A stretch of DNA of 64,000 bases from Dehalococcoidia bacterium (GTDB lineage: Bacteria > Chloroflexota > Dehalococcoidia > Bin125), in NCBI GenBank assembly GCA_963555985.3, contig OY820591.1, positions 1,696,001-1,760,000 on the forward strand. The letters run 5' to 3'. Positions 2,997-64,000 of the stretch are shown in pieces (within the stretch, counting starts at the first letter, position 1; each line of letters begins with the position of its first letter). Position numbers and translations under genes: made by a program. The notes beneath the pieces are model-generated. The model saw nothing but the letters and a program-made list of their open reading frames with translations, did not search any database and was not told where the DNA came from.

Positions 2997-4373
2997 TTAG
3001 CTGCCGCCGTTGTGCTGAGGCGAGTTTCGAGCAATCAGGCTCGGTCGAAGTGGAGTTCGAGTCCCTCGTATTGGCGGCCGCGCGAAGTAGATCGGTAAGA
3101 CCGCGGCAAAGGTCAGGATCGCGGTCACGGTGAGCGGCCAGGTGTAGGAGCCGCTGAGGTCGTAGAGGAAGCCGATCATCCAGGGTCCGACCCCCGAGGA
3201 GAGTTGCGTGGCCATCGCGATCAGTCCGTAGACGGCACCGAAGCTGACGTAGCCGAAGACATCGGACGTCAGCAGCGACTGGAGCATGTAGATGTTGCCG
3301 ATGGTGAAGCCGAAGACGAGGATGGCGACGAATGTGGAGGCGGCGTGATCGATGTGGATGACCATCAGCGCGGCTGCGCCCTGGACGACGAACATGATCG
3401 CGGTGAGGACGCGGAGATCAACCCGATCGGCGAAGAAGCGGCCCACGATCAGGCGGGCGACGATGCTGCCGAAGGCGGTCACGGAGAGTGTGGTGGTCGC
3501 AGCGGTGAGCGAGCCGAGCCGCTCTTCGAGGAACGCGGTCTGATGGAGGATGAATCCGGTTTGGGCGAGTAAGACGATCAGAAACGAGAGCAGAATCGCC
3601 CAGAACGCAGGCGTGCGGGTCGCGGCGCGGATAGACCAAGTTCGGGTCTGGTTGGCGAGGGAACGCGCTGCGCTGCTCGCCAGCGGACGGGCGTAGCTGC
3701 CGAATCCATCCTGCGGCAGCCCCATCTGTTTCGGGTCCCAGACCAGCACGAAGGCGACGATGGGCAAACCAACGACGACGATCAGCGCGCCCATGATCGG
3801 CGTTGCGACATCGAGGCCGAAGCCCTCGATCAGGAAGCCGTTGAGCGGGGAGAGCACGACTCCGCCAAGCGAGACGCCGGTGGAGGAGACGGCCATCGCC
3901 CAGGCTCGACGGTGCAGGAACCAGCGCGCCAGGGTTGCGTTGACCGCAACCCCGGCGCTCATGCCGGTGCCGATCGCGAGTCCCAGGTAGACGAGGTAGA
4001 GTTGCCAGAGCTGATCGACCTGACCGATGCCGAGCGACGAGAGGCCGATCAGGATCAGGCCGGGTCCCATCCAGCGGCGCGCTCCGTAACGGTCGATCAA
4101 GGGTCCGACGACGGCTCCGGCGAGTCCGGAGGCGGCGAAGTAGAGGCCGGTGGCGAGCGAGACCTGGCCGTTGCTCCAGCCGTGAAGCTCTTGCAACGGC
4201 CCTAGGTAGACAGCGAGTCCGTAGTAGCCGACGCCGACGGAGACGAAGAGGAGCGTGCTGCACGCAAAGACGATCGCCCAGCCGTAGTAGATATGGCTCG
4301 GAAGCAGGCGGGCAGCGAGCGGCCGCTGGGCGCGCAGCTCGGGCGGCGGGGTAAGGCTGGACGCGGTGGGCAA
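2997..4373 (-). CDS. MFS transporter (OFA/MCT-like)
   Basis: YYGW N-terminal motif, GPLIDRYGARR motif A, about 12 hydrophobic segments. Confidence 0.9.
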   Translation of the reverse strand: MPTASSLTPPPELRAQRPLAARLLPSHIYYGWAIVFACSTLLFVSVGVGYYGLAVYLGPLQELHGWSNGQVSLATGLYFAASGLAGAVVGPLIDRYGARRWMGPGLILIGLSSLGIGQVDQLWQLYLVYLGLAIGTGMSAGVAVNATLARWFLHRRAWAMAVSSTGVSLGGVVLSPLNGFLIEGFGLDVATPIMGALIVVVGLPIVAFVLVWDPKQMGLPQDGFGSYARPLASSAARSLANQTRTWSIRAATRTPAFWAILLSFLIVLLAQTGFILHQTAFLEERLGSLTAATTTLSVTAFGSIVARLIVGRFFADRVDLRVLTAIMFVVQGAAALMVIHIDHAASTFVAILVFGFTIGNIYMLQSLLTSDVFGYVSFGAVYGLIAMATQLSSGVGPWMIGFLYDLSGSYTWPLTVTAILTFAAVLPIYFARPPIRGTRTPLRPSLIARNSPQHNGGS

Positions 4374-4511: not shown

Positions 4512-5639
4512 ATGGCCGAACGACAGACGGGTTGGGTGTTTCACGAGGCGTACATGTGGCACGACACCGGCCGCACGCGGGCGTTCGATCCCGTCTTGCG
4601 CAAGTGGATGCAAGCGTGGGAGCACTGGGAGAATCCCGACACCAAGCGGCGATTGCAGAATCTGCTGGACTTCAGCGAGTTCTCGGAGGAGCTCGTCCAG
4701 CTCAAGCCGCGTCCTGCGAACCTGGAGCAGATCCTGCGGTTCCATACACCGGAGTACGTCGACCGCGTGCGCGAGCTGAGCGAGGCCGAAGGCGGCGACG
4801 CCGGCGAGGGCGCGCATTTCTCGGCGGGCGGGTATGAGATTGCGCTACTGGCCGTTGGGGGGACGATTGCGGCGATCAACGCGGTGCTCGACGGGACGGT
4901 CGACAACGCCTACGCGCTCACGCGGCCGCCCGGCCATCACGCGGAGCGGGATCGGGGGCGGGGATTCTGCATCTTCGGCAACGCTGCGATCGGGGCGATG
5001 CACGCGCTGGCAGACCGCGGACTCGAGCGGATCGCGACGCTCGATTGGGATGTGCATCACGGGAACGGCACCGAGCAGGCTTTCTACGACCGCAACGACG
5101 GACTGACGATTTCAATCCACCAAGATCATCTCTACCCGCGCGGACGCGGGTTCATGGCCGACAACGGCGAGGGCGCGGGCGAGGGTTACAACATCAATAT
5201 CCCCTTGCCGCCCGGCTCGGGGCACGGCGCGTATGTCGCGGCTGTGGAGCAGGTCGTAGTTCCGGCTCTGCGCGCCTATCGACCGGACTTGATCATCGTG
5301 CCGTCGGGATTCGACGGGGGCATGTACGACCCGCTGGGCCGGATGATGGCCTACTCGGAGACGTTCCGCGAGATGACGCGCCTGCTGCTGGAGGCGGCGG
5401 ACGAGCTGTGCGGCGGGCGTCTGGTGCTGACGCATGAGGGCGGGTATTCGCCGACATACGTACCGTTCTGCGGTCTGGCGGTGGTGGAGGAGCTGCGGGG
5501 CAAGCGATCGGTAGCGGGCGATCCGTTTGCGGAGACGGCTGCGGGGGTCGGCGGGCAGGATTTGCAGCCGCATCAGCAGGCGGTGCTTGATGATGCGAAG
5601 CAGCTGGTTGAGCGGTTGCGTGGGCTTGAGGGGGTCTAG
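4512..5639 (+). CDS. Class II histone deacetylase-like amidohydrolase
   Basis: RPPGHHA, GFCIFGN, DWDVHHGNGT, SGFD and HEGGY motifs. Confidence 0.93.
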   Translation: MAERQTGWVFHEAYMWHDTGRTRAFDPVLRKWMQAWEHWENPDTKRRLQNLLDFSEFSEELVQLKPRPANLEQILRFHTPEYVDRVRELSEAEGGDAGEGAHFSAGGYEIALLAVGGTIAAINAVLDGTVDNAYALTRPPGHHAERDRGRGFCIFGNAAIGAMHALADRGLERIATLDWDVHHGNGTEQAFYDRNDGLTISIHQDHLYPRGRGFMADNGEGAGEGYNINIPLPPGSGHGAYVAAVEQVVVPALRAYRPDLIIVPSGFDGGMYDPLGRMMAYSETFREMTRLLLEAADELCGGRLVLTHEGGYSPTYVPFCGLAVVEELRGKRSVAGDPFAETAAGVGGQDLQPHQQAVLDDAKQLVERLRGLEGV

Positions 5640-6994
5640 AACTCGACCAGAGTGAGGGGAGCCAACTGCTCCCCGGTTGGCTCCGCTCAACAGAACCAGT
5701 CTTCGGTCAGGCCTGGGCGGTGTAGGTGGGGAGCGGGGATGTCGGGCCAGGGAGTGGTTTCGAGCGCAGTACAGGTGGCTTGCTTGATTTCGGCAAACGA
5801 CGCGCCGCGCTCGGCTAGGGCGGCGATCTGCGATTGGAGGCGATCCAGCCGTTCGTCGGGGTGCCGCCAGATCCAGGTCAGACCGTCGGCGTCGTATTCG
5901 GTCAGGGCGTTGAGCTCGCGCATGGGTTGCACCAGGGGTGAGTCCGACGGCGCGAGCAGACGCAGGCCGAGCTGCACCGGAGGGGTCACGTCGATGAGTT
6001 GGCGGGTTTCCACGAACTTGAGCAGATCGAGGTAGTCGGCGGCGGTTGTCCAGGGCGTGAAGGGGAGCCAGGTGGGGCGGATGGCGATTCCGGCGGACGC
6101 GGTCAGTTCCAGGGCAATATCCAAATCGGCTGCCGTGTGTCCTTTGTCGAGCAGCGCGAGCAGCGAATCGTCTACCGACTCGAACGCGGAGGTGACGAAC
6201 GTGACGCCGAGTGCGGCCATTTCGGGCAGCAACGCGCGGTGTTCGAGCAGATGCTCAACCTTGATCGTCACGTCGTAGGTCATGTTCGGGTGCCGCTGCC
6301 TGCTCTCGCGCAGCAGGCCGACTGCGAGTTGGGGAGCGTTGAGGAAGTCGGGGTCTCCGAAGGTGATGTGTTCAGCGCCGCTCGCGGCCTGCTGCTCGAT
6401 GTCCGCGAGCACGGTCGCTGCGCCGTTGAGTCGGAGCCGACCCGCGTAGACGGGCGTAATTGGGCAGTGGGTGCATTGGTGCGCGCAGCCGCGCGTCGCT
6501 TCGACGTAGCCGGCCAGATGGGAGTTTCCGTTCGCATCGCGGTAGCGGGCGTACTGATCAAGCGAAGGCAGAGCGGATCTGTCGGGCAACGGGCGGTCGC
6601 GGCGATCGAAGATCGGCACGGGCGCGGGAGTCTCGCCGTTCGCCAACGCCACGAGCTGATAGTCGGTGTCGCCGGAGATTGTGCGTCCAAGATCGAGGTC
6701 GCCGAGAGCGCTGGCAATGAGACCGTAGAAGACGATCTTGTCGGACATGCCTCCCAGCGAACGCGCGACACGGATACCGAGGCGCGCGGCGGTGTGCATC
6801 GGAGTTGAGATGCCGACGAGGTCGGCCTCCTCCGCAAGCGTGCGCAGGTCCTCTGCCGAGATGGACTGGACATCGAGGTCGACGACGGTGACCTCGTGGC
6901 CTGCGGAGATCAGCGCCGCTGCGGGCGCGGCGATGCCGAGCGGTTGATGGCCTTGTTCGTAGGTGGAGATCAGGAGGACGGACACCACTGACAA
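5636..6994 (-). CDS. B12-binding radical SAM protein with CUAEP tail (probable selenoprotein; the ORF track stops at the UGA at 5687-5689)
   Basis: N-terminal cobalamin-binding-like region (GHQPLG...GISTPMHT) and CxxxCxxC (CAHQCTHC). The frame reads WFC-TGA-AEPTGEQLAPLTLVEF-TAG. Confidence 0.85.
5658..5684 (-). promoter_or_regulatory. Candidate SECIS hairpin immediately 3' of the in-frame UGA
   Basis: Perfect 9-bp stem GGAGCCAAC/GTTGGCTCC with a G-rich loop, starting 2 nt after the UGA. Confidence 0.55.
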
Positions 6995-49071: not shown

Positions 49072-51726
49072 TCATTCGCCGCCCATCGCGGAGTCGTCGT
49101 CGCCTGCGGTAGGTTCTCCGCATCTGCCCGTGTTCGAGTCGATCTTCTTGACGTCGTATTCGACAGCGGCCCATTGCATGAGGCAGTCCTTCATTTCGTG
49201 TTGATCCACTCCAAACTGCCGCTCCAAGGCACCCTCGGTGAACCACCAGGACCACCAGACCAACGTCTGGTGGTCAGCGAACTGACGATAATACGAAAGC
49301 AGCGACCGTTCACCACCCATGTGAACGAGCAATTCGGTCGCAATCGCGCCCAAGTCGTATGCGAAGTTCTCCAGATACTCTTCCAACTGTTCCACATCTG
49401 CGAGATCGCAATCAAATGTCTTCTCTGCCTTACGGCACAGCTTTTTCTTCGCCTCGACCCGGAAGCTGCTCCACCGCTCTGTCTGGAGCCGGGCATAGTC
49501 GACGTACTTTCGATCGAAGTATCGAGCATTTCCTTCGTACAGCCACTCCGGGGCAAGGGAAGCTTTATCGTATCCAGCATCAAAGGCATGCAGAAATCCC
49601 TCGTAGTCCGCCGAGGCCAACTGAAGAAGGTGGAAGTACTCGTGGGCTACGACTCTCTTCGTAACCTCGAGTCCAGGTTCGTTGTACATGTCATAACGAA
49701 ATCGGATGGCTGCGTGACCCGTGCGGGCCTGGGGAGGTGCAAGTGGGTTAACACTGTTTGGAGTACTTCTTGCCGCCCGTCCCGCTGCGTTCTTCTTCTC
49801 CGTCTCCAGGTCCAACACGTCGAAGGGGATCTCGTAGTGGTACTGCTCCATCAGCTGAGCGAAATCTTCAACGAAATACGGACCGACGTACAGGAAAGCG
49901 TCCTCCGACAGAGTTCCGCCGAATCGCGCTTCGGCGAAGTGCTCGATCGGCTTGATCGACGCCGCCAACTCGGCGATGGCATAGTGATCGTCCAGGAGGA
50001 AGTTCGCCTGCGCGCGCGTTTGATCGCCGGGCACGATCGCCAGGGCGTACTTGCCCTCGGCGAGCCGGTTGATGGAAGTGACGTCGATATAGTAGGTCCC
50101 GGGTTTGAGGACGAAGGTCGCGCCGGCGCCATAGGGTCCGAACCGACCGGCCCCGCTATCGCTGTAGTCATCGCCGCGCGACAGGCGGAACTCCACTGGC
50201 AGTTCGCTCGAGATTAAGTCGACTCGAACTTCGCGCTCCCCGTCCACCGTAAACGCGTATCGGTCAACCCGGCGCGACGGCGATGGATTGAGACTGAGGC
50301 AATCGCCCGATTCCAGGTGGCCATGCCCGACCAAACTATGCCGAACGTCCGTGGTGTCGATCGTGCCGAGTTCGATCGAGCCGCAGTCCCCGCCTGTTCC
50401 CGTCCGGCCATCGGAACCAAGTGAGACGCTGAGCTCATAGTTCCCAAGGCCGTCATAAGTTTGAGCGGCGACGATCTGGTAGTCGCCTGGGGCGAGGGAC
50501 TGGGTGATCTGGGAGCGCAACCCAGTTTCATCATCACCCGGAACAATTTCCCGTCCAGACCCATCCAGCAGGCGGACATACTCCGAGAAATCGCCGGAAC
50601 TCATCTTGATCGTCACCTCGGCGCTTTGCTCAAGCTTGAATGAGTAGAGGTCTGCGCGCTGTTCGGAGTCCAGCGGATCGCGGCAGTCGTCCCAGTAAGA
50701 GAGCAAGCCGGAGCGGTACGCGCCGAGCGAGCGCAACGTTCCCAGATCGTGGGCCGCGCAAGCGGCGACGCCGCCCTGCGTCACGCGCAGGCCGGCCGGC
50801 GGACTCGACTGACCATTGTCGTCGTCGCCCCAGCAATGGACCGCGCCTGACGCCGTCAGCCCGCAGGTGTAACCCCAGCCCGCGCTGACCTGCGTGAAAC
50901 GCCCGGCCGGCGGACTCGACTGGCCGGATTCGTCGTCGCCCCAGCACTGGACTGCGCCCGACGCCGTCAGCCCGCAGCTGTGTGTCCCGCCCGCGCTGAC
51001 CTGCGTGAAACGCCCGGCCGGCGGACTCCACTCGGTCGGCGGACTCCACTGGTCAAAGTTCACGTAGCCCCAGCACTGGACTTCCTTCGACGCCGTTAGC
51101 CCGCAGGTGTGCAACGAGCCCGCGCTGACCTGCGTGAAACGCCCGGCCGGCGGACTCGACTGGCCCGCCCAGTCGTCGCCCCAGCACTGGACCGCGCCCG
51201 AGGTCGTCAGCCCGCAGGTGTGCAACGCGCCCGCGCTGACCTGCGTGAAACGCCCGGCCGGCGGACTCGACTGGCCGAATTTGTCGTTGCCCCAGCACTG
51301 GACCGCGCTCGACGCCGTCACCCCGCAGCTGTGAAAAAAGCCTGCGCTGACTTGGGTGAAGCGACCCGCCGGCGGACTCGACTGGCCGTAGTCGTTCCGG
51401 CCCCAGCACTGCGCCGCGCCCGACGCCGTCACGCCGCAGCTGTGATGTACGTCCGCGCTGACCTGCGTGAAGCGCCCGGCCGGCGGACTCGACTGACCTT
51501 CGTCGTCCCCGCCCCAACACTGCACAGCGCCGGACTCCGTCACTACGCAGGTGTGATCCCCGCCCGCGCTGAGGGTTTCGACTAAACTCGATCCGCCCGA
51601 CTGCGCCTCTGCCGACCCGGCCTCAAGCCCCCAAACCGCAGCCGCAGCGACGACCGCGATGACCGCGAGCGCGGCCAGCCGCAGTTGCAATCTGAACCCA
51701 CCGTCTCCCATTTGCCGGAATGTCAT
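49072..51726 (-). CDS. Secreted multidomain protein: signal peptide, 7 RCC1/BLIP-II repeats, two PPC-like domains, zincin-like HExxH domain
   Basis: Hydrophobic N-terminus ending AEA-Q; 37-aa repeats QVSAG..H.CG....G.VQCWG....GQ; D.Y.F...PG.Y.I beta-sandwich patterns; VAHEYFHLLQ. Confidence 0.82.
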   Translation of the reverse strand: MTFRQMGDGGFRLQLRLAALAVIAVVAAAAVWGLEAGSAEAQSGGSSLVETLSAGGDHTCVVTESGAVQCWGGDDEGQSSPPAGRFTQVSADVHHSCGVTASGAAQCWGRNDYGQSSPPAGRFTQVSAGFFHSCGVTASSAVQCWGNDKFGQSSPPAGRFTQVSAGALHTCGLTTSGAVQCWGDDWAGQSSPPAGRFTQVSAGSLHTCGLTASKEVQCWGYVNFDQWSPPTEWSPPAGRFTQVSAGGTHSCGLTASGAVQCWGDDESGQSSPPAGRFTQVSAGWGYTCGLTASGAVHCWGDDDNGQSSPPAGLRVTQGGVAACAAHDLGTLRSLGAYRSGLLSYWDDCRDPLDSEQRADLYSFKLEQSAEVTIKMSSGDFSEYVRLLDGSGREIVPGDDETGLRSQITQSLAPGDYQIVAAQTYDGLGNYELSVSLGSDGRTGTGGDCGSIELGTIDTTDVRHSLVGHGHLESGDCLSLNPSPSRRVDRYAFTVDGEREVRVDLISSELPVEFRLSRGDDYSDSGAGRFGPYGAGATFVLKPGTYYIDVTSINRLAEGKYALAIVPGDQTRAQANFLLDDHYAIAELAASIKPIEHFAEARFGGTLSEDAFLYVGPYFVEDFAQLMEQYHYEIPFDVLDLETEKKNAAGRAARSTPNSVNPLAPPQARTGHAAIRFRYDMYNEPGLEVTKRVVAHEYFHLLQLASADYEGFLHAFDAGYDKASLAPEWLYEGNARYFDRKYVDYARLQTERWSSFRVEAKKKLCRKAEKTFDCDLADVEQLEEYLENFAYDLGAIATELLVHMGGERSLLSYYRQFADHQTLVWWSWWFTEGALERQFGVDQHEMKDCLMQWAAVEYDVKKIDSNTGRCGEPTAGDDDSAMGGE
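50795..51575 (-). repeat. Seven ~111-bp intragenic tandem repeats (RCC1 blades)
   Basis: Recurrent CCGCGCTGACCTGCGTGAAACGCCCGGCCGGCGGACTC at ~111-bp spacing; one unit carries an extra 18 bp. Confidence 0.9.
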
Positions 51727-59996: not shown

Positions 59997-61313
59997 ATGA
60001 CCCGCTACATCGCGTTGATGCTGATCGCCGCCGGGATAGTGCTGGCTGCCTGTTCGCCCGATCTGCCGCGGGGCGCGGTGCATGTCTCGACTCTGGCCGA
60101 TGACATTGGCCCGGTCTCGGCCAACTTCATCAAGCGGGCTCTGGATCGGGCTGAAGAGGCGGGTGCGGTTGCCTGGATCCTCGAGCTAGACACGCCAGGC
60201 GGGTTGATCTCGTCGACCGACGACATCGTGCAGCGGATTCTGGCGGCTGAGGTTCCGGTGGTGATCTTCGTCAGTCCGGCGGGGGCGCGGGCGGCTTCGG
60301 CGGGGACGTTCATCACGCTGGCGGGCAATATCGCGGCGATGGCTCCGAACACCCAGATTGGGGCGGCGCATCCGGTGGCGGGGGGCGGGGAGGACATTGA
60401 CGGCGACCTGGGCGACAAGGTGACCAACGACGCCGCGGCGGACATTCGCGGGATTGCGGAGCATCGAGGGCGAAACGCGGAATGGGCAGAACAGGCCGTG
60501 CGCGAGTCGGTCTCGATCACCGGCAGTGAAGCGGTTGAGCTTGGCGTCGTTGATCTCGTAGCTGACGACCTGGACGATCTCCTGGAGCAACTCGACGGGA
60601 TGGTGGTGGACGGATTCGGCGCGCTTGCGGTGTCGGGCGCGCCGATGGTGGAGACGGACTACACGTTTGCCGAGAACGTGCTTGACGTGATCGCCGATCC
60701 GAACATCGCCTTCATTCTGATCAACATCGGCGGACTGCTCTTGATCGTGGAGGCGTTCTCGCCGGGGCTGGTCGGTCCGGGCGTCTTCGGCGTGATCATG
60801 CTGATCGTGGGCTTCTTCGCCCTGGGCCCGCTGGACACGAATCCGGCGGGGATTGCGCTGCTGGTGCTGGGCTTGATCTTGCTCGTGGCCGAGGTCTTTG
60901 TGGCCGGCTTCGGCTTTCTCGGCATCGGCGGGATCATTGCGTTGGTGATCGGGGGGCTGATCCTGATTGGGGATGCGTCGGTGGATGCGGAGAAGGTGTC
61001 GGTCTGGGCGTTGATCGTTGGCGCGGGCTTGATCGGAGCGGTGGTGTTGGGGATCGGCATGTTGGTCGGGATTGACCGGCGGCGGCCGAAGTGGCGGCCT
61101 CGGCTCACGAGCCAGGATTCGGACGGGATCGTGGGCAAGGCGGGGGTGGCGCACAACCTGCTCTCGCCGCAGGGCACGGTCGTGGTCGATGCGGAGTTGT
61201 GGTCGGCGCGGGCGGCGGCGGGGGTGGAGATCGCGCAGGGAGCGTCTGTGCGCGTGATTGGGATGGACGGTCTGACGGCGATTGTGGAGGCGGAAGAGAG
61301 CGAGCCTCAGTAG
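59997..61313 (+). CDS. nfeD: NfeD family membrane-bound serine protease
   Basis: LDTPGG, AASAG, IGAAHPV, membrane domain and C-terminal OB-fold (ELWSAR). Confidence 0.92.
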
Positions 61314-61675
61314 GAGTGGATGGCGCGTTTGGCGTTGCGGGGGCGCTGGGGGATGCGTGCGGCGCGGCCGGTGCGTCCGCGGAGGTAGTAGAGGCGGCTG
61401 CGGCGGACGCGGCCGCGGCGGACGACTTCGACTTTGAGCACGCGCGGGGAGTGGTAGAGGAAGGTGCGCTCGACGCCGATGCCCTGGGTGACGCGGCGGA
61501 CGGTGAAGTTGGAGGAGGAGCCCTTCTTCTTGCGCCGGATGACGACGCCTTCGAAGACCTGGGTGCGCTCGCGGTCGCCTTCGACGATGAGAGCATGGAC
61601 GCGCACGGTGTCGCCGGGTTGAAACGGTTGGATTTCCTCGTTGCGTTCAAGGGTGAGCAGGTCGCTGCGGTCCAT
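61307..61675 (-). CDS. rplS: 50S ribosomal protein L19
   Basis: [39 protein letters not shown]. Confidence 0.98.
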
Positions 61676-62009
61676 CGTTCGTTCTCTCGGCGTGTTGGGC
61701 GGGAACTGCCAGTGTACGCGGGGGGTTGGCTTTGGCCTAGCGCCCGATCGGGGTGACCCTCAGGCGGAGCGTGACGCGGGATACATCCACAAGGGGATTG
61801 TTCGGCTTGGGGGTGTTCAGGGAGAAATTTATTTTGGCGTGCGGGGATGCTGATCTCCTGTGTTTTCTGGGGTTTTGGCGTTTGGGGTGTTCAGTCTTGT
61901 TCAGGTTTGGGTGTTCGATTGCGTTCGATTGCGTTCGATTTTGGACGGATTTGTGCGGACTTGGACGGGGGCGTTCGGGTGGTGTTTGGGATGTGCGCGT
62001 GGTGTCACC

Positions 62010-62243
62010 CGTTGCGTCACCGGCCATTTCGGAGGCTCCTCAACGCAAGGAGCGCGGCACCTATTCGATGATCCACGTTGCGTCACCGGCCATTTCGGAG
62101 GCTCCTCAACGGTCCTCTACCCCAACCCGCACGGCTACTACCGTTGCGTCACCGGCCATTTCGGAGGCTCCTCAACGAGCGTTGCGCGTTGCGTATCCGT
62201 TCGCCATCGTTGCGTCACCGGCCATTTCGGAGGCTCCTCAACG
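62010..62243 (-). CRISPR. CRISPR array: 4 identical 36-nt repeats, 3 unique 30-nt spacers
   Basis: Repeat CGTTGCGTCACCGGCCATTTCGGAGGCTCCTCAACG (+ strand) at 62010-62045, 62076-62111, 62142-62177 and 62208-62243; exact 66-nt period. Strand inferred from the adjacent gene and scaffold pairing. Confidence 0.93.
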
Positions 62244-63872
62244 AGATAGCAGCCGGAAGCCGGGCAGCGACGCCTGCGTTGAGTGACCTCCTCCATGATG
62301 GGCGAATTCTGGGCGGCTCCCCCGTTCCAGGTGGTTCGGGATCACAGCGGCCGGGGCGGGAACGCAACACCCGCCCTCTGTCAGAGACAGTTGTAAGACG
62401 TTACGCGCCGCGTTCACGTCGGCGTTGGCGGCGTAGCCGCAGGCGGGGCAGTCGAACGTCTCGCCCTGCCGCGCACCCGGCTCGATCGCGCCACACGCTG
62501 AACATGCTCGGGACGTGTAGGGGGCCGGGACCCTGACTAGATGCCCGCCGTGCTTCTCGGCTTTTTCTCCCACGAGCGTCAGGAATTGGCCCCACGTCTG
62601 TTCGCTGATGCTTCGGTTCAGTCCTCGTTTCTGTTTGACGTTCCGCCCCGGCTCCTCCACGGTGCCGGCAGCGCTCTTGGTCATGTTCGGAATCCGCAAG
62701 TCCTCGGCGGCGATGTGGTCGTAACGCCGCACCAGAGCCTGTGCGATGCGGTGATCCTGCTGGCGACGGCGGATGCGGTTCTTGCGCTTGAGCTTGGCGA
62801 GTCGGCGTTTTCGCCGCTCCAGGGTCTTGCTGCCTTTCCGCGACGGCCGGCGGCGGCTGCGCTTCTTGGTCTTGGTTGCGGTCAGCCGCTGCAAGCGCTT
62901 TTCTTCGCTGTCGTCGGGTTCGCGCTTCGGAATCATGATCCCGTCTGAGAGCGCGACGCGAGTGTTGACACCCAGGTCGAGACCGACCATTTTGCCGGCC
63001 TTGGGCAGCGGTTCACGCTCCACCTCACAGACCAGATCGACGTAGAGGCCGTTTGGAGTGAGGTTGAAGCGCACCTCTTTGGGCTTGCAATCGGGCAAGG
63101 TTCCGGGTGACTTCAGCTTGATCCGCAGGTAGTGCTTTCCCTTATGCTGCTGCGCCTTGTGAAACACCACCTCCGCGCGATGCCCGCAGGCCGAGCGCTT
63201 GACATTGCCAGCCTTGATCATCTTGGAGCCGATGCAGCGCCAGCGCTCGCGCTTCTGGTACTTCGGCATCCCGCGAATTCCACTGAGGTGCGCCTGGATG
63301 CTGTTCTGAGCCTTTGCAATCGCCCAGGCCAGCAATCCAAAGTCGAAATCCCGAAGCTCTGGGAACTCGGCGCGCAGAGGCTTGAGGTCGTAGGTCATGG
63401 AGTTGTAGCCGCGGAAGGCCGGCACGCCCGCTTTGGTTCTGCGGTAGTTGTTGGTCTCGGGCAGTTGACGGCGCTCGCGCTCGGCGTCGGTTCGCTCGCC
63501 TACCACCTCCCACCACTTTTGCCCGGTCTCCTCCTCATCTTCCTTCGTCCACCAGGGCGGCTTGTAGACCTTGCGGTAGACCGGCTCGCCGTTTTCGAGG
63601 ACTGGCTTGCCGTTCTTCATTCTCGGCACGATCCAGTACTGTCCCTGCGGGCCGATGCCCTGCTCCCGCATTCGGCGATAGTCGCGGAAGGCGCGGTATT
63701 CCTCGACGACGGCGTTGTAGATGGCGCACTGGACTCCGGCGATGCGGTGGAGCTTGTCGTAGTCGCTGCGGCGGGCGCGGACGGCGCGTCGCTGGAGGGT
63801 TCGGACGAGAGGTTTGGGGGTGTCGGGCATCTGTTGGTTTGCCTCGTTTGGGGGATACTCATATGTTCGCAT
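62238..63872 (-). CDS. tnpB: CRISPR-associated TnpB-family RNA-guided RuvC nuclease (Cas12f/type V-U-like)
   Basis: RuvC-I VGLDLGV (D299), RuvC-II IAAEDL (E390), Zn finger CSAC/CPAC, RuvC-III NADVNAARN (D485); IS605-type SAAGTVEEPGRNVKQKRGLNRSI segment. Alternative start at ATG 63830. Confidence 0.92.
   Translation of the reverse strand: MRTYEYPPNEANQQMPDTPKPLVRTLQRRAVRARRSDYDKLHRIAGVQCAIYNAVVEEYRAFRDYRRMREQGIGPQGQYWIVPRMKNGKPVLENGEPVYRKVYKPPWWTKEDEEETGQKWWEVVGERTDAERERRQLPETNNYRRTKAGVPAFRGYNSMTYDLKPLRAEFPELRDFDFGLLAWAIAKAQNSIQAHLSGIRGMPKYQKRERWRCIGSKMIKAGNVKRSACGHRAEVVFHKAQQHKGKHYLRIKLKSPGTLPDCKPKEVRFNLTPNGLYVDLVCEVEREPLPKAGKMVGLDLGVNTRVALSDGIMIPKREPDDSEEKRLQRLTATKTKKRSRRRPSRKGSKTLERRKRRLAKLKRKNRIRRRQQDHRIAQALVRRYDHIAAEDLRIPNMTKSAAGTVEEPGRNVKQKRGLNRSISEQTWGQFLTLVGEKAEKHGGHLVRVPAPYTSRACSACGAIEPGARQGETFDCPACGYAANADVNAARNVLQLSLTEGGCCVPAPAAVIPNHLERGSRPEFAHHGGGHSTQASLPGFRLLSR
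62244..62380 (-). ncRNA. Putative omegaRNA/tracrRNA-like scaffold overlapping the 3' end of the nuclease gene
   Basis: Anti-repeat at 62277-62291 and hairpin at 62354-62376 whose loop is complementary to the repeat 3' end; boundaries approximate. Confidence 0.7.
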
Positions 63873-63968
63873 AGTTTGGGCTGAATGGCAAATGGGGGGT
63901 GCTGCGAGGTTGCTGGATTTGTCGTTCAGGAGCAGGCGATGATCCGCGCTCTAGTCGACACGCCGCAT

Positions 63969-63993
63969 GGATTCCCGCGTTCGCGGGAATGAC
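63969..63993. repeat. REP-like palindrome GGATTCCCGCG-TT-CGCGGGAATGAC
   Basis: Perfect 9-bp stem; related to 28595-28664. Confidence 0.7.
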
Positions 63994-64000
63994 GGAAACA

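Follow-up and report, generated by a model that had tools for sequence, protein, structure and literature searches.

Among the closest described systems is Cas12n (V-N, formerly V-U4), a group of miniature, monomer-sized effectors (400-700 aa) exemplified by RdCas12n (PDB 9J09), with an A-rich 5'-AAN PAM and monomeric cleavage of double-stranded DNA. Cas12n proteins have a REC region enlarged relative to TnpB, and their loci carry a short array directly downstream with no adaptation genes. According to two reports (PMC12216341; bioRxiv 10.64898/2026.03.27.714800), the C-terminal tail is disordered and the tracrRNA overlaps the ORF; the latter source gives a mean Cas12n size of 544 aa. In RdCas12n, nucleotides -170 to -168 pair with repeat positions -4 to -2 to form a pseudoknot.

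Many similar systems have been catalogued. PMC10691335 lists TnpB-to-Cas12 captures that arose independently, about 50 in number, whose loci have downstream arrays but lack adaptation genes, and it places conserved Cas12 arrays downstream of the gene, where they mimic omegaRNA. TranC and V-U6 to V-U45 are described as TnpB-nested effectors that gained small arrays independently (median 4.5-5 repeats in clades with several arrays), again with no adaptation genes, by a route in which omegaRNA was split into tracrRNA and crRNA; repeats of the TranC clades measure 32-38 nt (bioRxiv 10.64898/2026.03.27.714800). The architecture considered below has already been published for Cas12n (V-N/V-U4), V-U6 to V-U45 and TranC.

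Here we describe a locus in a 64 kb window, by which we mean the whole 64,000-nucleotide stretch of DNA that was analysed, from an uncultured member of the Chloroflexota (Table 1). We consider it probable, at roughly 70%, that the locus is a miniature type V CRISPR-Cas system, chromosomal and derived from TnpB, that works like Cas12n (V-N) or TranC.

Table 1. Positions of the features discussed, numbered from the first nucleotide of the window
Feature	Position	Strand	Basis or remark
Effector ORF, 544 aa	62238..63872	minus	TnpB-like RuvC/TNB nuclease, REC insertion, disordered tail
REC helical-region insertion, ~95 aa, residues ~71-165	63378..63662	minus	alignment A1
RuvC/Zn-finger block overall	62418..62978	minus	A1 columns and Pfam
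RuvC-I D299	62976-62978	minus	invariant column, A1
RuvC-II E390	62703-62705	minus	invariant column, A1
Zn-finger cysteines C457-C478	62439-62504	minus	invariant columns, A1
RuvC-III D485	62418-62420	minus	invariant column, A1
Disordered C-terminal tail codons, residues 500-544	62241..62375	minus	pLDDT <30; proposed tracrRNA/omegaRNA-like scaffold
Predicted hairpin, 7-bp G/C stem, 9-nt loop	62354..62376	minus	pseudoknot candidate
Anti-repeat candidate (a)	62277..62291	minus	pairs with first 15 nt of repeat: 12 Watson-Crick, 1 G-U, 2 mismatches
Anti-repeat candidate (c)	62261..62273	minus	pairs with repeat positions 20-32; encodes part of conserved SLPG block
CRISPR mini array, 4 repeats and 3 spacers	62010..62243	minus (strand inferred)	repeat search
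Identical repeats, 36 nt	62208-62243, 62142-62177, 62076-62111, 62010-62045	minus (inferred)	sequence
Spacers, 30 nt	62178-62207, 62112-62141, 62046-62075	minus (inferred)	sequence
Non-coding tract between array and rplS	61775..62000	minus	composition
rplS	61307-61675	minus	Ribosomal_L19

Results

The effector belongs to the TnpB family

The effector gene translates without a stop through its 544 codons and has a GC3 of 0.79, resembling host genes. The protein is also present in a public protein set as P0002, which begins at M15 and has 530 aa. A GAGG motif lies ~11 nt 5' of the M15 ATG (63830), and none precedes the first ATG. M15 is the likely start, giving a protein of 530 aa.

Members of the TnpB/Cas12 superfamily were recognised by a split RuvC domain with a D-E-D triad, a Zn-finger TNB insertion and a match to a family HMM, and the effector has each of these. 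The residues D299, E390 and D485, as well as C457, C460, C475 and C478, are invariant in a 15-sequence alignment (A1). Pfam matches are OrfB_IS605 and Cas12f1-like_TNB, with PF01385 and PF07282 both above their cutoffs, and the NCBIfam model guided_TnpB (NF040570) reaches 177 bits (cutoff 100) over residues 143-494. The top Foldseek match is ISDra2 TnpB (8h1j; TM 0.72 on the target, E 8.5e-17), and the best sequence match among solved structures is RdCas12n (9J09; E 2e-24). These findings, from sequence and from a predicted structure, support the assignment of the effector to the TnpB family of RNA-guided nucleases, and the protein is presumably active.

Models of narrower groups match less well. 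Cas12u4 is the best PADLOC model, with 157.8 bits over residues 291-496 only. The V-U2 (C2c8) model NF038192 scores 125.7 bits against a cutoff of 350 and covers residues 261-462 only, the Cas12f2 model NF049972 (V-F) scores 70.2 against 450, and the PADLOC models for Cas12f align chiefly to the C-terminal part of the protein. Likewise, NF038281 (106.6 against 425) and NF038280 (87.1 against 350) are both below cutoff. We also considered Cas-delta (PMC12721324), which was rejected on account of its greater size (under 1000 aa) and its lack of a tracrRNA.

The helical REC region carries an insertion of ~95 aa that, in alignment A1, the effector shares with P0003 alone. Among the 150 representatives listed, its own cluster excepted, no best-matching stretch begins before query residue 142. 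The AF2 model gives the insertion partial order (block-mean pLDDT of 35-77), and Pfam yields zero matches to it. An Atlas feature search with residues 60-170 scored 0.92 with ~100 of 256 features common, and is uninformative.

The stop codon lies within the first repeat of a CRISPR array

For the purposes of this study, a CRISPR array was defined as at least three direct repeats of 23-55 nt, nearly identical to one another, with unique spacers of similar, constant length between them. The effector gene is followed by four identical repeats of 36 nt with three unique spacers of 30 nt. A search of the window for the 34-nt repeat core gave exactly four sites, without mismatches (at 62011, 62077, 62143 and 62209), whereas a match of any kind arose in 0 of 100 shuffled sequences. 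Repeat boundaries are sharp because the flanking bases vary among the copies. The spacers share no similarity with each other, and each is single-copy in the window at up to three mismatches. When the whole array was compared by blastn with 50,697 phage records and 72,556 plasmid records, only chance-level matches were obtained (best E of 0.8 and 0.2, respectively), and the array translated as a spurious 129-aa ORF matched none of 1044 candidates.

On the gene strand, the TGA stop (62240..62238) and the Arg codon that precedes it make up 6 nt at the start of the gene-proximal repeat, which is the full extent of the overlap. None of the repeats is degenerate, so the array itself carries no internal polarity signal.

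The locus stands among housekeeping genes

The effector is single-copy in the window and sits among housekeeping genes. Genes for cas1, cas2, cas4 and tnpA are absent from the 53 ORFs scanned (PADLOC E<=1e-8, Pfam E<=1e-12). The window stops 128 bp upstream of the first ATG of the effector, and the most plausible side for tnpA or an adaptation module therefore lies outside it. A mobile TnpB (OMEGA) would be expected to come with TnpA, or with transposon ends and a single right-end guide, and in multiple copies; the 53 ORFs include no Y1 or serine TnpA, and an array takes the place of the single guide.

The non-coding tract that separates the array from rplS has a GC content of 52-54%, is C/A-rich and G-poor on the gene strand, and contains GTTCGATTGC in 2.8 tandem copies. 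It could be a Rho-dependent termination zone or the promoter region of rplS. A scan of 61600-64000 found 0 promoter-like sites and 2 terminator-like sites, compared with 4.3 expected.

What the initial annotation had described is borne out by these results: a 544-aa TnpB-like protein with a RuvC triad and a CxxC/CxxC finger, four identical repeats with three distinct spacers, a stop inside the gene-proximal repeat, rplS (Ribosomal_L19 by Pfam) as the next gene downstream and, for the 53 ORFs of a window that ends so near the gene, no cas1, cas2, cas4 or tnpA.

The 3' end of the ORF carries candidate scaffold elements

Residues 500-544 form a tail with an AF2 pLDDT <30. This disorder matches the unstructured tail that published descriptions of Cas12n report to hold the tracrRNA. 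Three islands of the tail (GGCC.PA, PEFA and TQ.SLPGF) are kept in both P0003 and P0122, whose C termini fall at the corresponding point of the tail. In the comparison of P0003 with P0122, the tail (45/46) is more conserved than the core (147/170), whereas between P0001 and P0003 it is less conserved (23/46 versus 134/169).

The coding sequence of the tail and its border contains a predicted hairpin whose loop (62362-62368, from position -161) is perfectly complementary to repeat positions -8 to -2. A loop/repeat 7-mer of this kind arises in 259 of 5000 shuffles, and folding of a 41-nt excerpt alone gives a minimum-energy structure other than this stem. Two anti-repeat candidates lie closer to the array and are mutually exclusive within one duplex. 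Candidate (a) is not significant alone, its best ungapped score being reached by 72 of 500 shuffles, and neither is candidate (c). RNAduplex energies for the repeat against its flanks, on both strands, fall inside the range of shuffled sequences, and the fold of a 243-nt segment has a z-score of only -0.93. Rfam gave 0 matches at gathering score across the window, and three far below it in 61700-62800, each with E >3.

Taken together, the sequence supports the view that the 3' end of the ORF, just upstream of the array, carries candidates for the elements expected of an omegaRNA or tracrRNA scaffold. The tail would accordingly specify a putative tracrRNA that forms the pairings given above.

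A second array-bearing locus and the position of the effector lineage

The lineage is very rare, comprising in the public protein set the effector, one relative at 71% identity and one fragment. A scan of genome contigs returned at least 80 related loci, and the genome of the window is not among the loci listed; of those listed, none exceeds 43% identity apart from a short fragment (L078) with 53% over 135 residues. By tblastn, 2024 plasmid records matched, all at <60% identity, and the matches listed with annotation are all named transposase or TnpB-family protein.

Among the 80 related loci listed, L051 (Proteobacteria MAG JAFAFA010000073.1) is a second array-bearing case. Its TnpB-like effector has 454 aa, and the TGA directly adjoins the first in a row of five repeats, each 36 nt long, with a period of 66. 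Its distal repeat is degenerate, which fits a reading of the array in the sense of the gene. L051 also has a loop complement at -189 (about 185 nt upstream) that pairs with repeat positions -7 to -1, a match found in 114 of 5000 shuffles, and a 10-nt anti-repeat. The two loci thus share 36-nt repeats, a stop at the first repeat, a loop complementary to the 3' end of the repeat and an in-register CGGTGAC heptamer within the repeats. However, L051 matches the whole Cas12u4 model (281 bits), belongs to the other major clade of the tree and has no REC insertion. Locus L001 has a related tnpB-like gene immediately next to an unrelated array with 28-nt repeats, an adjacency that is evidently accidental.

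A phylogeny, which the initial annotation had proposed as a means of placing the protein, was built with 96 rows. The effector falls within a 29-row clade (SH-aLRT of 99), and a branch with a support of 98 parts this clade from another in which the four Cas12u4-like rows all fall; these references are labelled by HMM only, and no verified Cas12n sequence is in the tree. The stem branch of the effector lineage is long (1.03). Forcing the effector and the Cas12u4-like rows together costs 101.8 lnL (p-AU 3.6e-5) in an AU test that used a 35-row subset with LG+G4 and a group named after the first tree had been seen. The effector is thereby set outside the Cas12u4-like clade, as defined by HMM-labelled references, and its lineage is possibly one without a name.

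Discussion

Comparison with described systems and proposed mechanism

The locus resembles Cas12n in its miniature effector, the directly downstream short array, the lack of adaptation genes in the window and an enlarged REC region. It also has a disordered tail whose coding sequence may hold a tracrRNA, and a candidate pseudoknot that would join a 5' stem loop to the 3' end of the repeat, at about the position known from RdCas12n. The two differ in that they are alignable over the RuvC/TNB half only, the REC insertion is without a detectable relative, the clade is separate from that of Cas12u4-like proteins, and the host is one of the Chloroflexota, whereas the paper's four named Cas12n are from actinobacterial genera. 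The novel TranC subtypes are reported to be without a Cas12n-like unstructured tail (bioRxiv 10.64898/2026.03.27.714800), whereas the effector has one. ISDra2 TnpB (PDB 8H1J) and other TnpB proteins of IS200/IS605/IS607 share with the effector their fold, the guided_TnpB match above cutoff and, if the candidate holds, a guide scaffold that overlaps the 3' end of the ORF. In contrast to these elements, the locus has four repeat-spacer units rather than one guide at a transposon end, a 95-aa REC insertion, a long branch and no TnpA in the window.

Under our preferred reading, the effector (~485 structured residues and a 45-residue disordered tail) would be transcribed together with the array from the minus strand. 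The last ~135-170 nt of the ORF would also encode a scaffold RNA, either a tracrRNA or an omegaRNA-like RNA acting in cis with the first repeat. The hairpin loop near -160 would form a pseudoknot with the final nucleotides of each repeat, while an anti-repeat would pair with another part of the repeat. Each repeat-spacer unit would then provide a guide 3' of the repeat, and the RuvC centre would cleave PAM-flanked double-stranded DNA of invaders, presumably in defence. New spacers, if they are still added, would come from adaptation proteins encoded elsewhere.

The initial annotation had read the 3' end of an omegaRNA as having become a CRISPR repeat and had seen in the locus a candidate TnpB-to-Cas12 intermediate. 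This reading is supported in part, by the gapless joining of the gene to a canonical-looking array and by the candidate scaffold elements. The anatomy itself is not new: it is described for Cas12n, ~50 captures with downstream arrays are catalogued, the stop of L051 meets its first repeat in a like manner, and the overlap is only 6 nt.

Alternative readings

The effector might simply be a divergent member of Cas12n, in which case its lineage is not new. Its best PDB match is RdCas12n and its best PADLOC model is Cas12u4, its 544 aa equal the mean size quoted in the preprint, its tail is disordered, and its REC expansion is similar in size to the RdCas12n REC domain (residues 21-181). Moreover, P0208 and P0223, which match the whole Cas12u4 model, also align to RdCas12n over the C-terminal half only, so the missing N-terminal match does not exclude membership. 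However, Cas12u4 stops at residues 291-496 in the effector but covers L051, P0208, P0223 and P0253 at full length with 243-281 bits. The separate, well-supported clade and the cost of a joint one argue in the same direction, within the limits of HMM-labelled references and a post hoc group. A Cas12n tail is disordered and dispensable, with the tracrRNA in its coding sequence; the tail of the effector is disordered, and the pseudoknot loop and anti-repeat candidates, whose statistics are weak alone, lie in its coding sequence. At the level of sequence, the effector is not demonstrably a Cas12n member, and we regard this alternative as unlikely.

Less likely still is that transcription of the array runs on the plus strand, convergently with that of the gene, with 61775-62000 as its leader; crRNA polarity would then be reversed and a tracrRNA optional. 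The adjoining lower-GC non-coding tract would suit a leader, 62277-62291 on the plus strand complements the spacer-proximal 15 nt of the repeat, and undegenerated repeats leave polarity unfixed by the array. However, the plus-strand duplex energy is reached by 71 of 200 shuffles, no sigma-70-like promoter was found in 61600-64000, and the pseudoknot-type complement and its L051 twin are sensible only on the gene strand. The published conserved Cas12 arrays lie downstream of the gene and are modelled on omegaRNA (PMC10691335).

Slightly less probable again is that a solo, domesticated or decaying tnpB lies beside the orphan array of another CRISPR-Cas system with no joint function. In its favour, the 53 window ORFs include no cas genes, the window ends 128 bp from the gene, and L001 offers an accidental neighbour of this kind. 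Against it, the ORF reaches exactly 6 nt into the first repeat; P0003 and P0122 terminate at the corresponding point of the tail; the complement of the 3' end of the repeat has the spacing expected of a TnpB or Cas12n scaffold; the long stem branch and REC insertion fit functional change; and 36-nt repeats fall within the range reported for TranC clades.

Implications

More tentatively, and at somewhat less than even odds, P0001, P0003 and P0122 may represent an unnamed type V lineage of the Chloroflexota that arose independently, from a clade of solo tnpB genes other than the one that led to Cas12n, and converged on the Cas12n solution. That same joint reading, no more firmly held, takes the shared solution to comprise a scaffold RNA in a disordered tail and a stop that overlaps the first repeat, along with a lineage-specific REC insertion of ~95 aa.

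The locus represents no new kind of biology, as its concept and architecture, along with many parallel lineages, are already in the literature. Should the lineage prove independent of Cas12n, it would be a further replicate of the TnpB-to-Cas12 transition with the same anatomy, by the omegaRNA-splitting route, and such a replicate would make a stronger case that this route is predictable. It would also add to the editor pool a new compact nuclease of about 485-530 structured residues.

A TnpB-like gene that ends within a CRISPR repeat

The initial annotation described a TnpB-like nuclease gene running into a mini CRISPR array, and this feature is real. Four identical 36-nt repeats, three distinct and mutually unrelated 30-nt spacers, and a TGA inside the gene-proximal repeat were all read directly in the window. 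The repeat core occurs four times in the 64 kb window, whereas 0 of 100 shuffles gave any match, and the repeat boundaries are exact because the bases flanking each copy differ. On the gene strand, the first repeat opens with CGT TGA (Arg544 plus stop), and therefore gene and repeat overlap by 6 nt. A 7-nt motif found at one end of the repeat occurs twice in the gene-proximal spacer, and a segment just past the distal repeat matches the terminal 12 nt of the repeat at 10 of 12 positions. These resemblances could be traces of array growth or could be due to chance.

Features of the effector locus, its protein and the surrounding window
Feature	Position	Details
Effector ORF	63872..62238, minus strand	544 residues on translation
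CRISPR repeats	62208-62243, 62142-62177, 62076-62111, 62010-62045	directly 3' of effector gene
Gene-proximal spacer	62178-62207	two copies of 7-nt motif
Near-match to repeat end	61998-62009	
7-nt complement	starts -76	pairs with first 7 nt of repeat
Anti-repeat candidate, 15 nt	62277-62291	12 Watson-Crick, 1 G-U, 2 mismatches
7-nt complement	starts -161, 62362-62368	pairs with repeat positions -8..-2
Predicted hairpin	62354-62376	7-bp G/C stem, 9-nt loop
Third pairing candidate	62261-62273	pairs with repeat positions 20-32
Non-coding tract, array to rplS	61775-62000	GC 52-54%
10-nt unit, x2.8	61913-61940	within non-coding tract
Upstream hairpin	63971-63990	near-perfect, 8-9 bp
RCC1-repeat protein gene	49072-51726	884 aa
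Tandem repeats, 111 nt + 129 nt	50792-51572	80-88% matches; in RCC1-repeat gene
Pfam OrfB_IS605	residues 281-400	
Pfam Cas12f1-like TNB	residues 427-492	
NCBIfam guided_TnpB	residues 143-494	177 bits, cutoff 100; model positions 37-388/389
NCBIfam C2c8 / V-U2		125.7 bits, below cutoff 350
NCBIfam IS200 TnpB		106.6 bits, below cutoff 425
NCBIfam IS607 TnpB		87.1 bits, below cutoff 350
NCBIfam Cas12f2		70.2 bits, below cutoff 450
PADLOC Cas12u4	residues 291-496 only	157.8 bits
PADLOC Cas12u2		149.8 bits
PDB sequence search, RdCas12n 9J09	residues 291-493	E 2e-24
PDB sequence search, ISDra2 TnpB		E 9e-18

Genomic surroundings

The effector gene has a GC3 of 0.79, like its neighbours, in a window of 64.4% GC; the surroundings consist of housekeeping genes such as his, pur and rplS, the rplS product matching Ribosomal_L19 (Pfam). 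HisD shares 78-82% identity with proteins labelled as Chloroflexota or Chloroflexi MAGs and up to 89% with further database proteins, which places the host among uncultured Chloroflexota. The claim that cas1, cas2, cas4 and tnpA are absent from the window holds for the 53 ORFs scanned, with the window stopping 128 bp upstream of the first effector ATG. Among these ORFs, PADLOC (E <= 1e-8) yielded no Cas protein match, its only hits being a UvrD-type helicase and a methyltransferase, and Pfam (E <= 1e-12) yielded no Cas1, Cas2, Cas4, Y1 transposase or resolvase, at thresholds that a small Cas2 could slip through.

The non-coding tract separating the array from rplS has a GC skew of +0.44 to +0.46 and an AT skew down to -0.68. 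Several GGGTGTTC-like motifs occur in it, and its gene-strand sequence is rich in C and A but poor in G, resembling a Rho utilisation site. The upstream hairpin lies at the window edge, ~100 nt before the first effector ATG.

The effector protein

An identical protein in the public set (P0002, 530 aa) starts at M15. This shorter form is the likelier product, since a GAGG lies ~11 nt 5' of the M15 ATG, whereas the first ATG lacks one; residue numbers here refer to the 544-aa form. As initially annotated, the RuvC triad (D299, E390 and D485) and the zinc-finger cysteines (C457, C460, C475 and C478) are present, and all occupy invariant columns in a 15-sequence alignment of the effector and its relatives.

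An AlphaFold2 model built on this alignment has a mean pLDDT of 70.7, with values below 50 for the N-terminal 18 residues and residues 125-149, and below 30 for the tail (residues 500-544). The top Foldseek match in the PDB is ISDra2 TnpB (8h1j; E 8.5e-17, TM 0.72 on target), followed by AsCas12f entries. Compared with its nearest relatives in the alignment, the effector carries a ~95-residue insertion at about residues 71-165, between the first REC helix and those that come after it. Owing to this insertion, its REC region is similar in size to the REC domain of RdCas12n, described as residues 21-181 (PMC12216341). The insertion has no Pfam match, and an Atlas search gave no informative neighbour.

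A rare lineage and its related loci

Among 8000 candidates scored in a word-indexed search of 5.8 billion proteins, 218 matched at E <= 0.001, and above 41% identity these comprise only the effector itself and P0003 (71%, 530 aa). At E <= 0.001, exhaustive phmmer against 1.84 billion cluster representatives found 15,376 matches, 397 of them at E <= 1e-30. Among the best 150, the only close relatives are the effector's own cluster and P0122, a 217-aa fragment at 72%; the next match, P0004, is at 41%, and outside the effector's own cluster none has a best stretch that starts before query residue 142. Both searches together indicate that the insertion-bearing lineage is known from three sequences among the matches listed.

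A scan of genome contigs matched at least 579 stretches; 488 of them passed confirmation, and the top 80 serve as the loci compared here, a set from which the window's own genome is absent. Most show 29-49% identity over the best segment, and three short fragments reach higher values, the maximum being 57% across about 96 residues. Repeats spaced 48-90 nt apart were sought in the region running from 200 nt upstream to 900 nt downstream of each stop, and 3 of the 80 loci were flagged. L012 has a single weak repeat pair, and the 27/54-nt tandem in L022 does not resemble CRISPR. The third, L051 (5455-7122, Proteobacteria MAG JAFAFA010000073.1), encodes a protein of 454 aa, and its TGA (6817-6819) directly adjoins an array of five 36-nt repeats (36/30, period 66) in which the distal repeat is degenerate. 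Against PADLOC Cas12u4 this protein scores 281.5 bits, a whole-model match (residues 6-427, model positions 21-469). Because L051 shares it, the gene-abutting mini array is a recurring architecture not peculiar to the window.

A whole-locus k-mer scan found arrays in L001, L003 and L070, none of them downstream of the gene. The nearest genomic relative in the effector's clade among the best 80 loci, L001 (3384-6714, Dehalococcoidia MAG OZ253670.1), is broken: past an N-terminal fragment (3384-3848) come two ORFs of 211 aa and 156 aa in the opposite orientation, which we read as transposase-like. The array that comes next (5264-5886) has 11 repeats of about 28 nt with 32-nt spacers, and its degenerate last repeat adjoins the other two-thirds of the tnpB-like gene. 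L074 (4861-7720, Rhodothermales MAG OZ244993.1), of the same clade, is a solo tnpB-like gene flanked by AbiEi antitoxin-like and AbiEii toxin-like ORFs.

Phylogenetic placement

A quick IQ-TREE phylogeny was built from 96 rows (the effector, 29 database proteins and 66 locus ORFs of 360-480 aa) and 407 columns, after exclusion of 14 locus ORFs that were fragments or over-long reads. The effector and P0003 group together (SH-aLRT 100, stem 1.03 changes per site) inside a 29-row clade (support 99) whose members include P0004-P0012, L001 (Dehalococcoidia), L002, L003 (Caldilineaceae), L069 and L074. The four intact loci of this clade have neither a downstream array nor a neighbouring TnpA. The effector's clade belongs to a 39-row side of the tree, which a branch of support 98 divides from a 57-row clade containing L051 and three whole-model Cas12u4 matches (P0208, P0223 and P0253). 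In an AU test (35-row subset, LG+G4), joining the effector and P0003 with these four, a group named only after the first tree was seen, costs 101.8 lnL (p-AU 3.6e-5).

The effector stands apart from Cas12u4 proteins whose labels are HMM-based, in a set of rows without verified Cas12n (type V-N, formerly V-U4) sequences. P0208 and P0223 are alignable with RdCas12n only from about residue 190-217 onward. The effector's TnpB branch is apparently a separate one.

Candidate RNA elements in the ORF tail

Read on the gene strand, two 7-nt segments within the 260 nt preceding the first repeat are perfectly complementary to the repeat. The complement at -76 is the core of the 15-nt anti-repeat candidate, and that at -161 falls in the loop of the hairpin predicted in 243-nt and 226-nt folds; in a 41-nt excerpt folded alone, the stem is not the minimum-energy structure. 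In the RdCas12n structure, positions -4..-2 are described as pairing with -170..-168 in a pseudoknot that is conserved in the guide RNAs of TnpB, Cas12f and Cas12n (PMC12216341). At the effector locus, 259 of 5000 shuffles contain a 7-mer complementary to the final 9 nt of the repeat. At L051, the equivalent complement at -189 pairs with repeat positions -7..-1 (114 of 5000 shuffles) and lies in the loop region of a predicted 8-bp hairpin; a perfect 10-nt anti-repeat from -103, inside the ORF tail, pairs with repeat positions -19..-10. Because these two unrelated loci have the same geometry, gene-strand transcription with an ORF-embedded scaffold RNA is favoured, the likeness lending this candidate arrangement covariation-like support at the level of sequence.

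Other measures count against it. The best ungapped complementarity between the repeat and upstream sequence was reached in 72 of 500 shuffles, RNAduplex energies of the repeat against its flanks are unremarkable, the overall fold z-score is only -0.93, and the third pairing candidate competes with the other two.

The predicted hairpin begins at residue 499, exactly at the end of the structured protein, and the conserved tail islands GGCC.PA, PEFA and TQ.SLPGF map onto this hairpin, a small CCGG hairpin and the anti-repeat candidates. Between P0003 and P0122, 45 of 46 tail positions are identical, against 147 of 170 positions in the core ahead of the tail; between the effector and P0003, the tail has only 23 of 46 identical positions, against 134 of 169 in the core.

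Discussion

One survey describes ~50 TnpB origins of type V effectors and defines forty candidate branches (V-U6 to V-U45), with type V arrays nearly always downstream of the gene and adaptation genes missing from most V-U variants (PMC10691335). A recent preprint places the tracrRNA within the Cas12n tail, gives a mean Cas12n size of 544 aa (485 without the tail), and reports 32-38-nt repeats for clades of transposon-CRISPR intermediates (TranC), with a median of 4.5-5 repeats in those with several arrays (bioRxiv 10.64898/2026.03.27.714800). Splitting of the omegaRNA is attributed to Jin et al., Cell 2025 (as cited in PMC13565253).

The core of the proposal that this locus represents a TnpB-to-Cas12 intermediate holds, but the gene-plus-array architecture has already been published, is well described, and recurs in L051. 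That the effector lineage constitutes an unnamed, independently evolved subtype is a tentative suggestion, which we rate at somewhat below an even chance. The best reading of the locus is a miniature type V system, Cas12n-like or TranC-like, belonging to a rare and apparently distinct TnpB branch in Chloroflexota.
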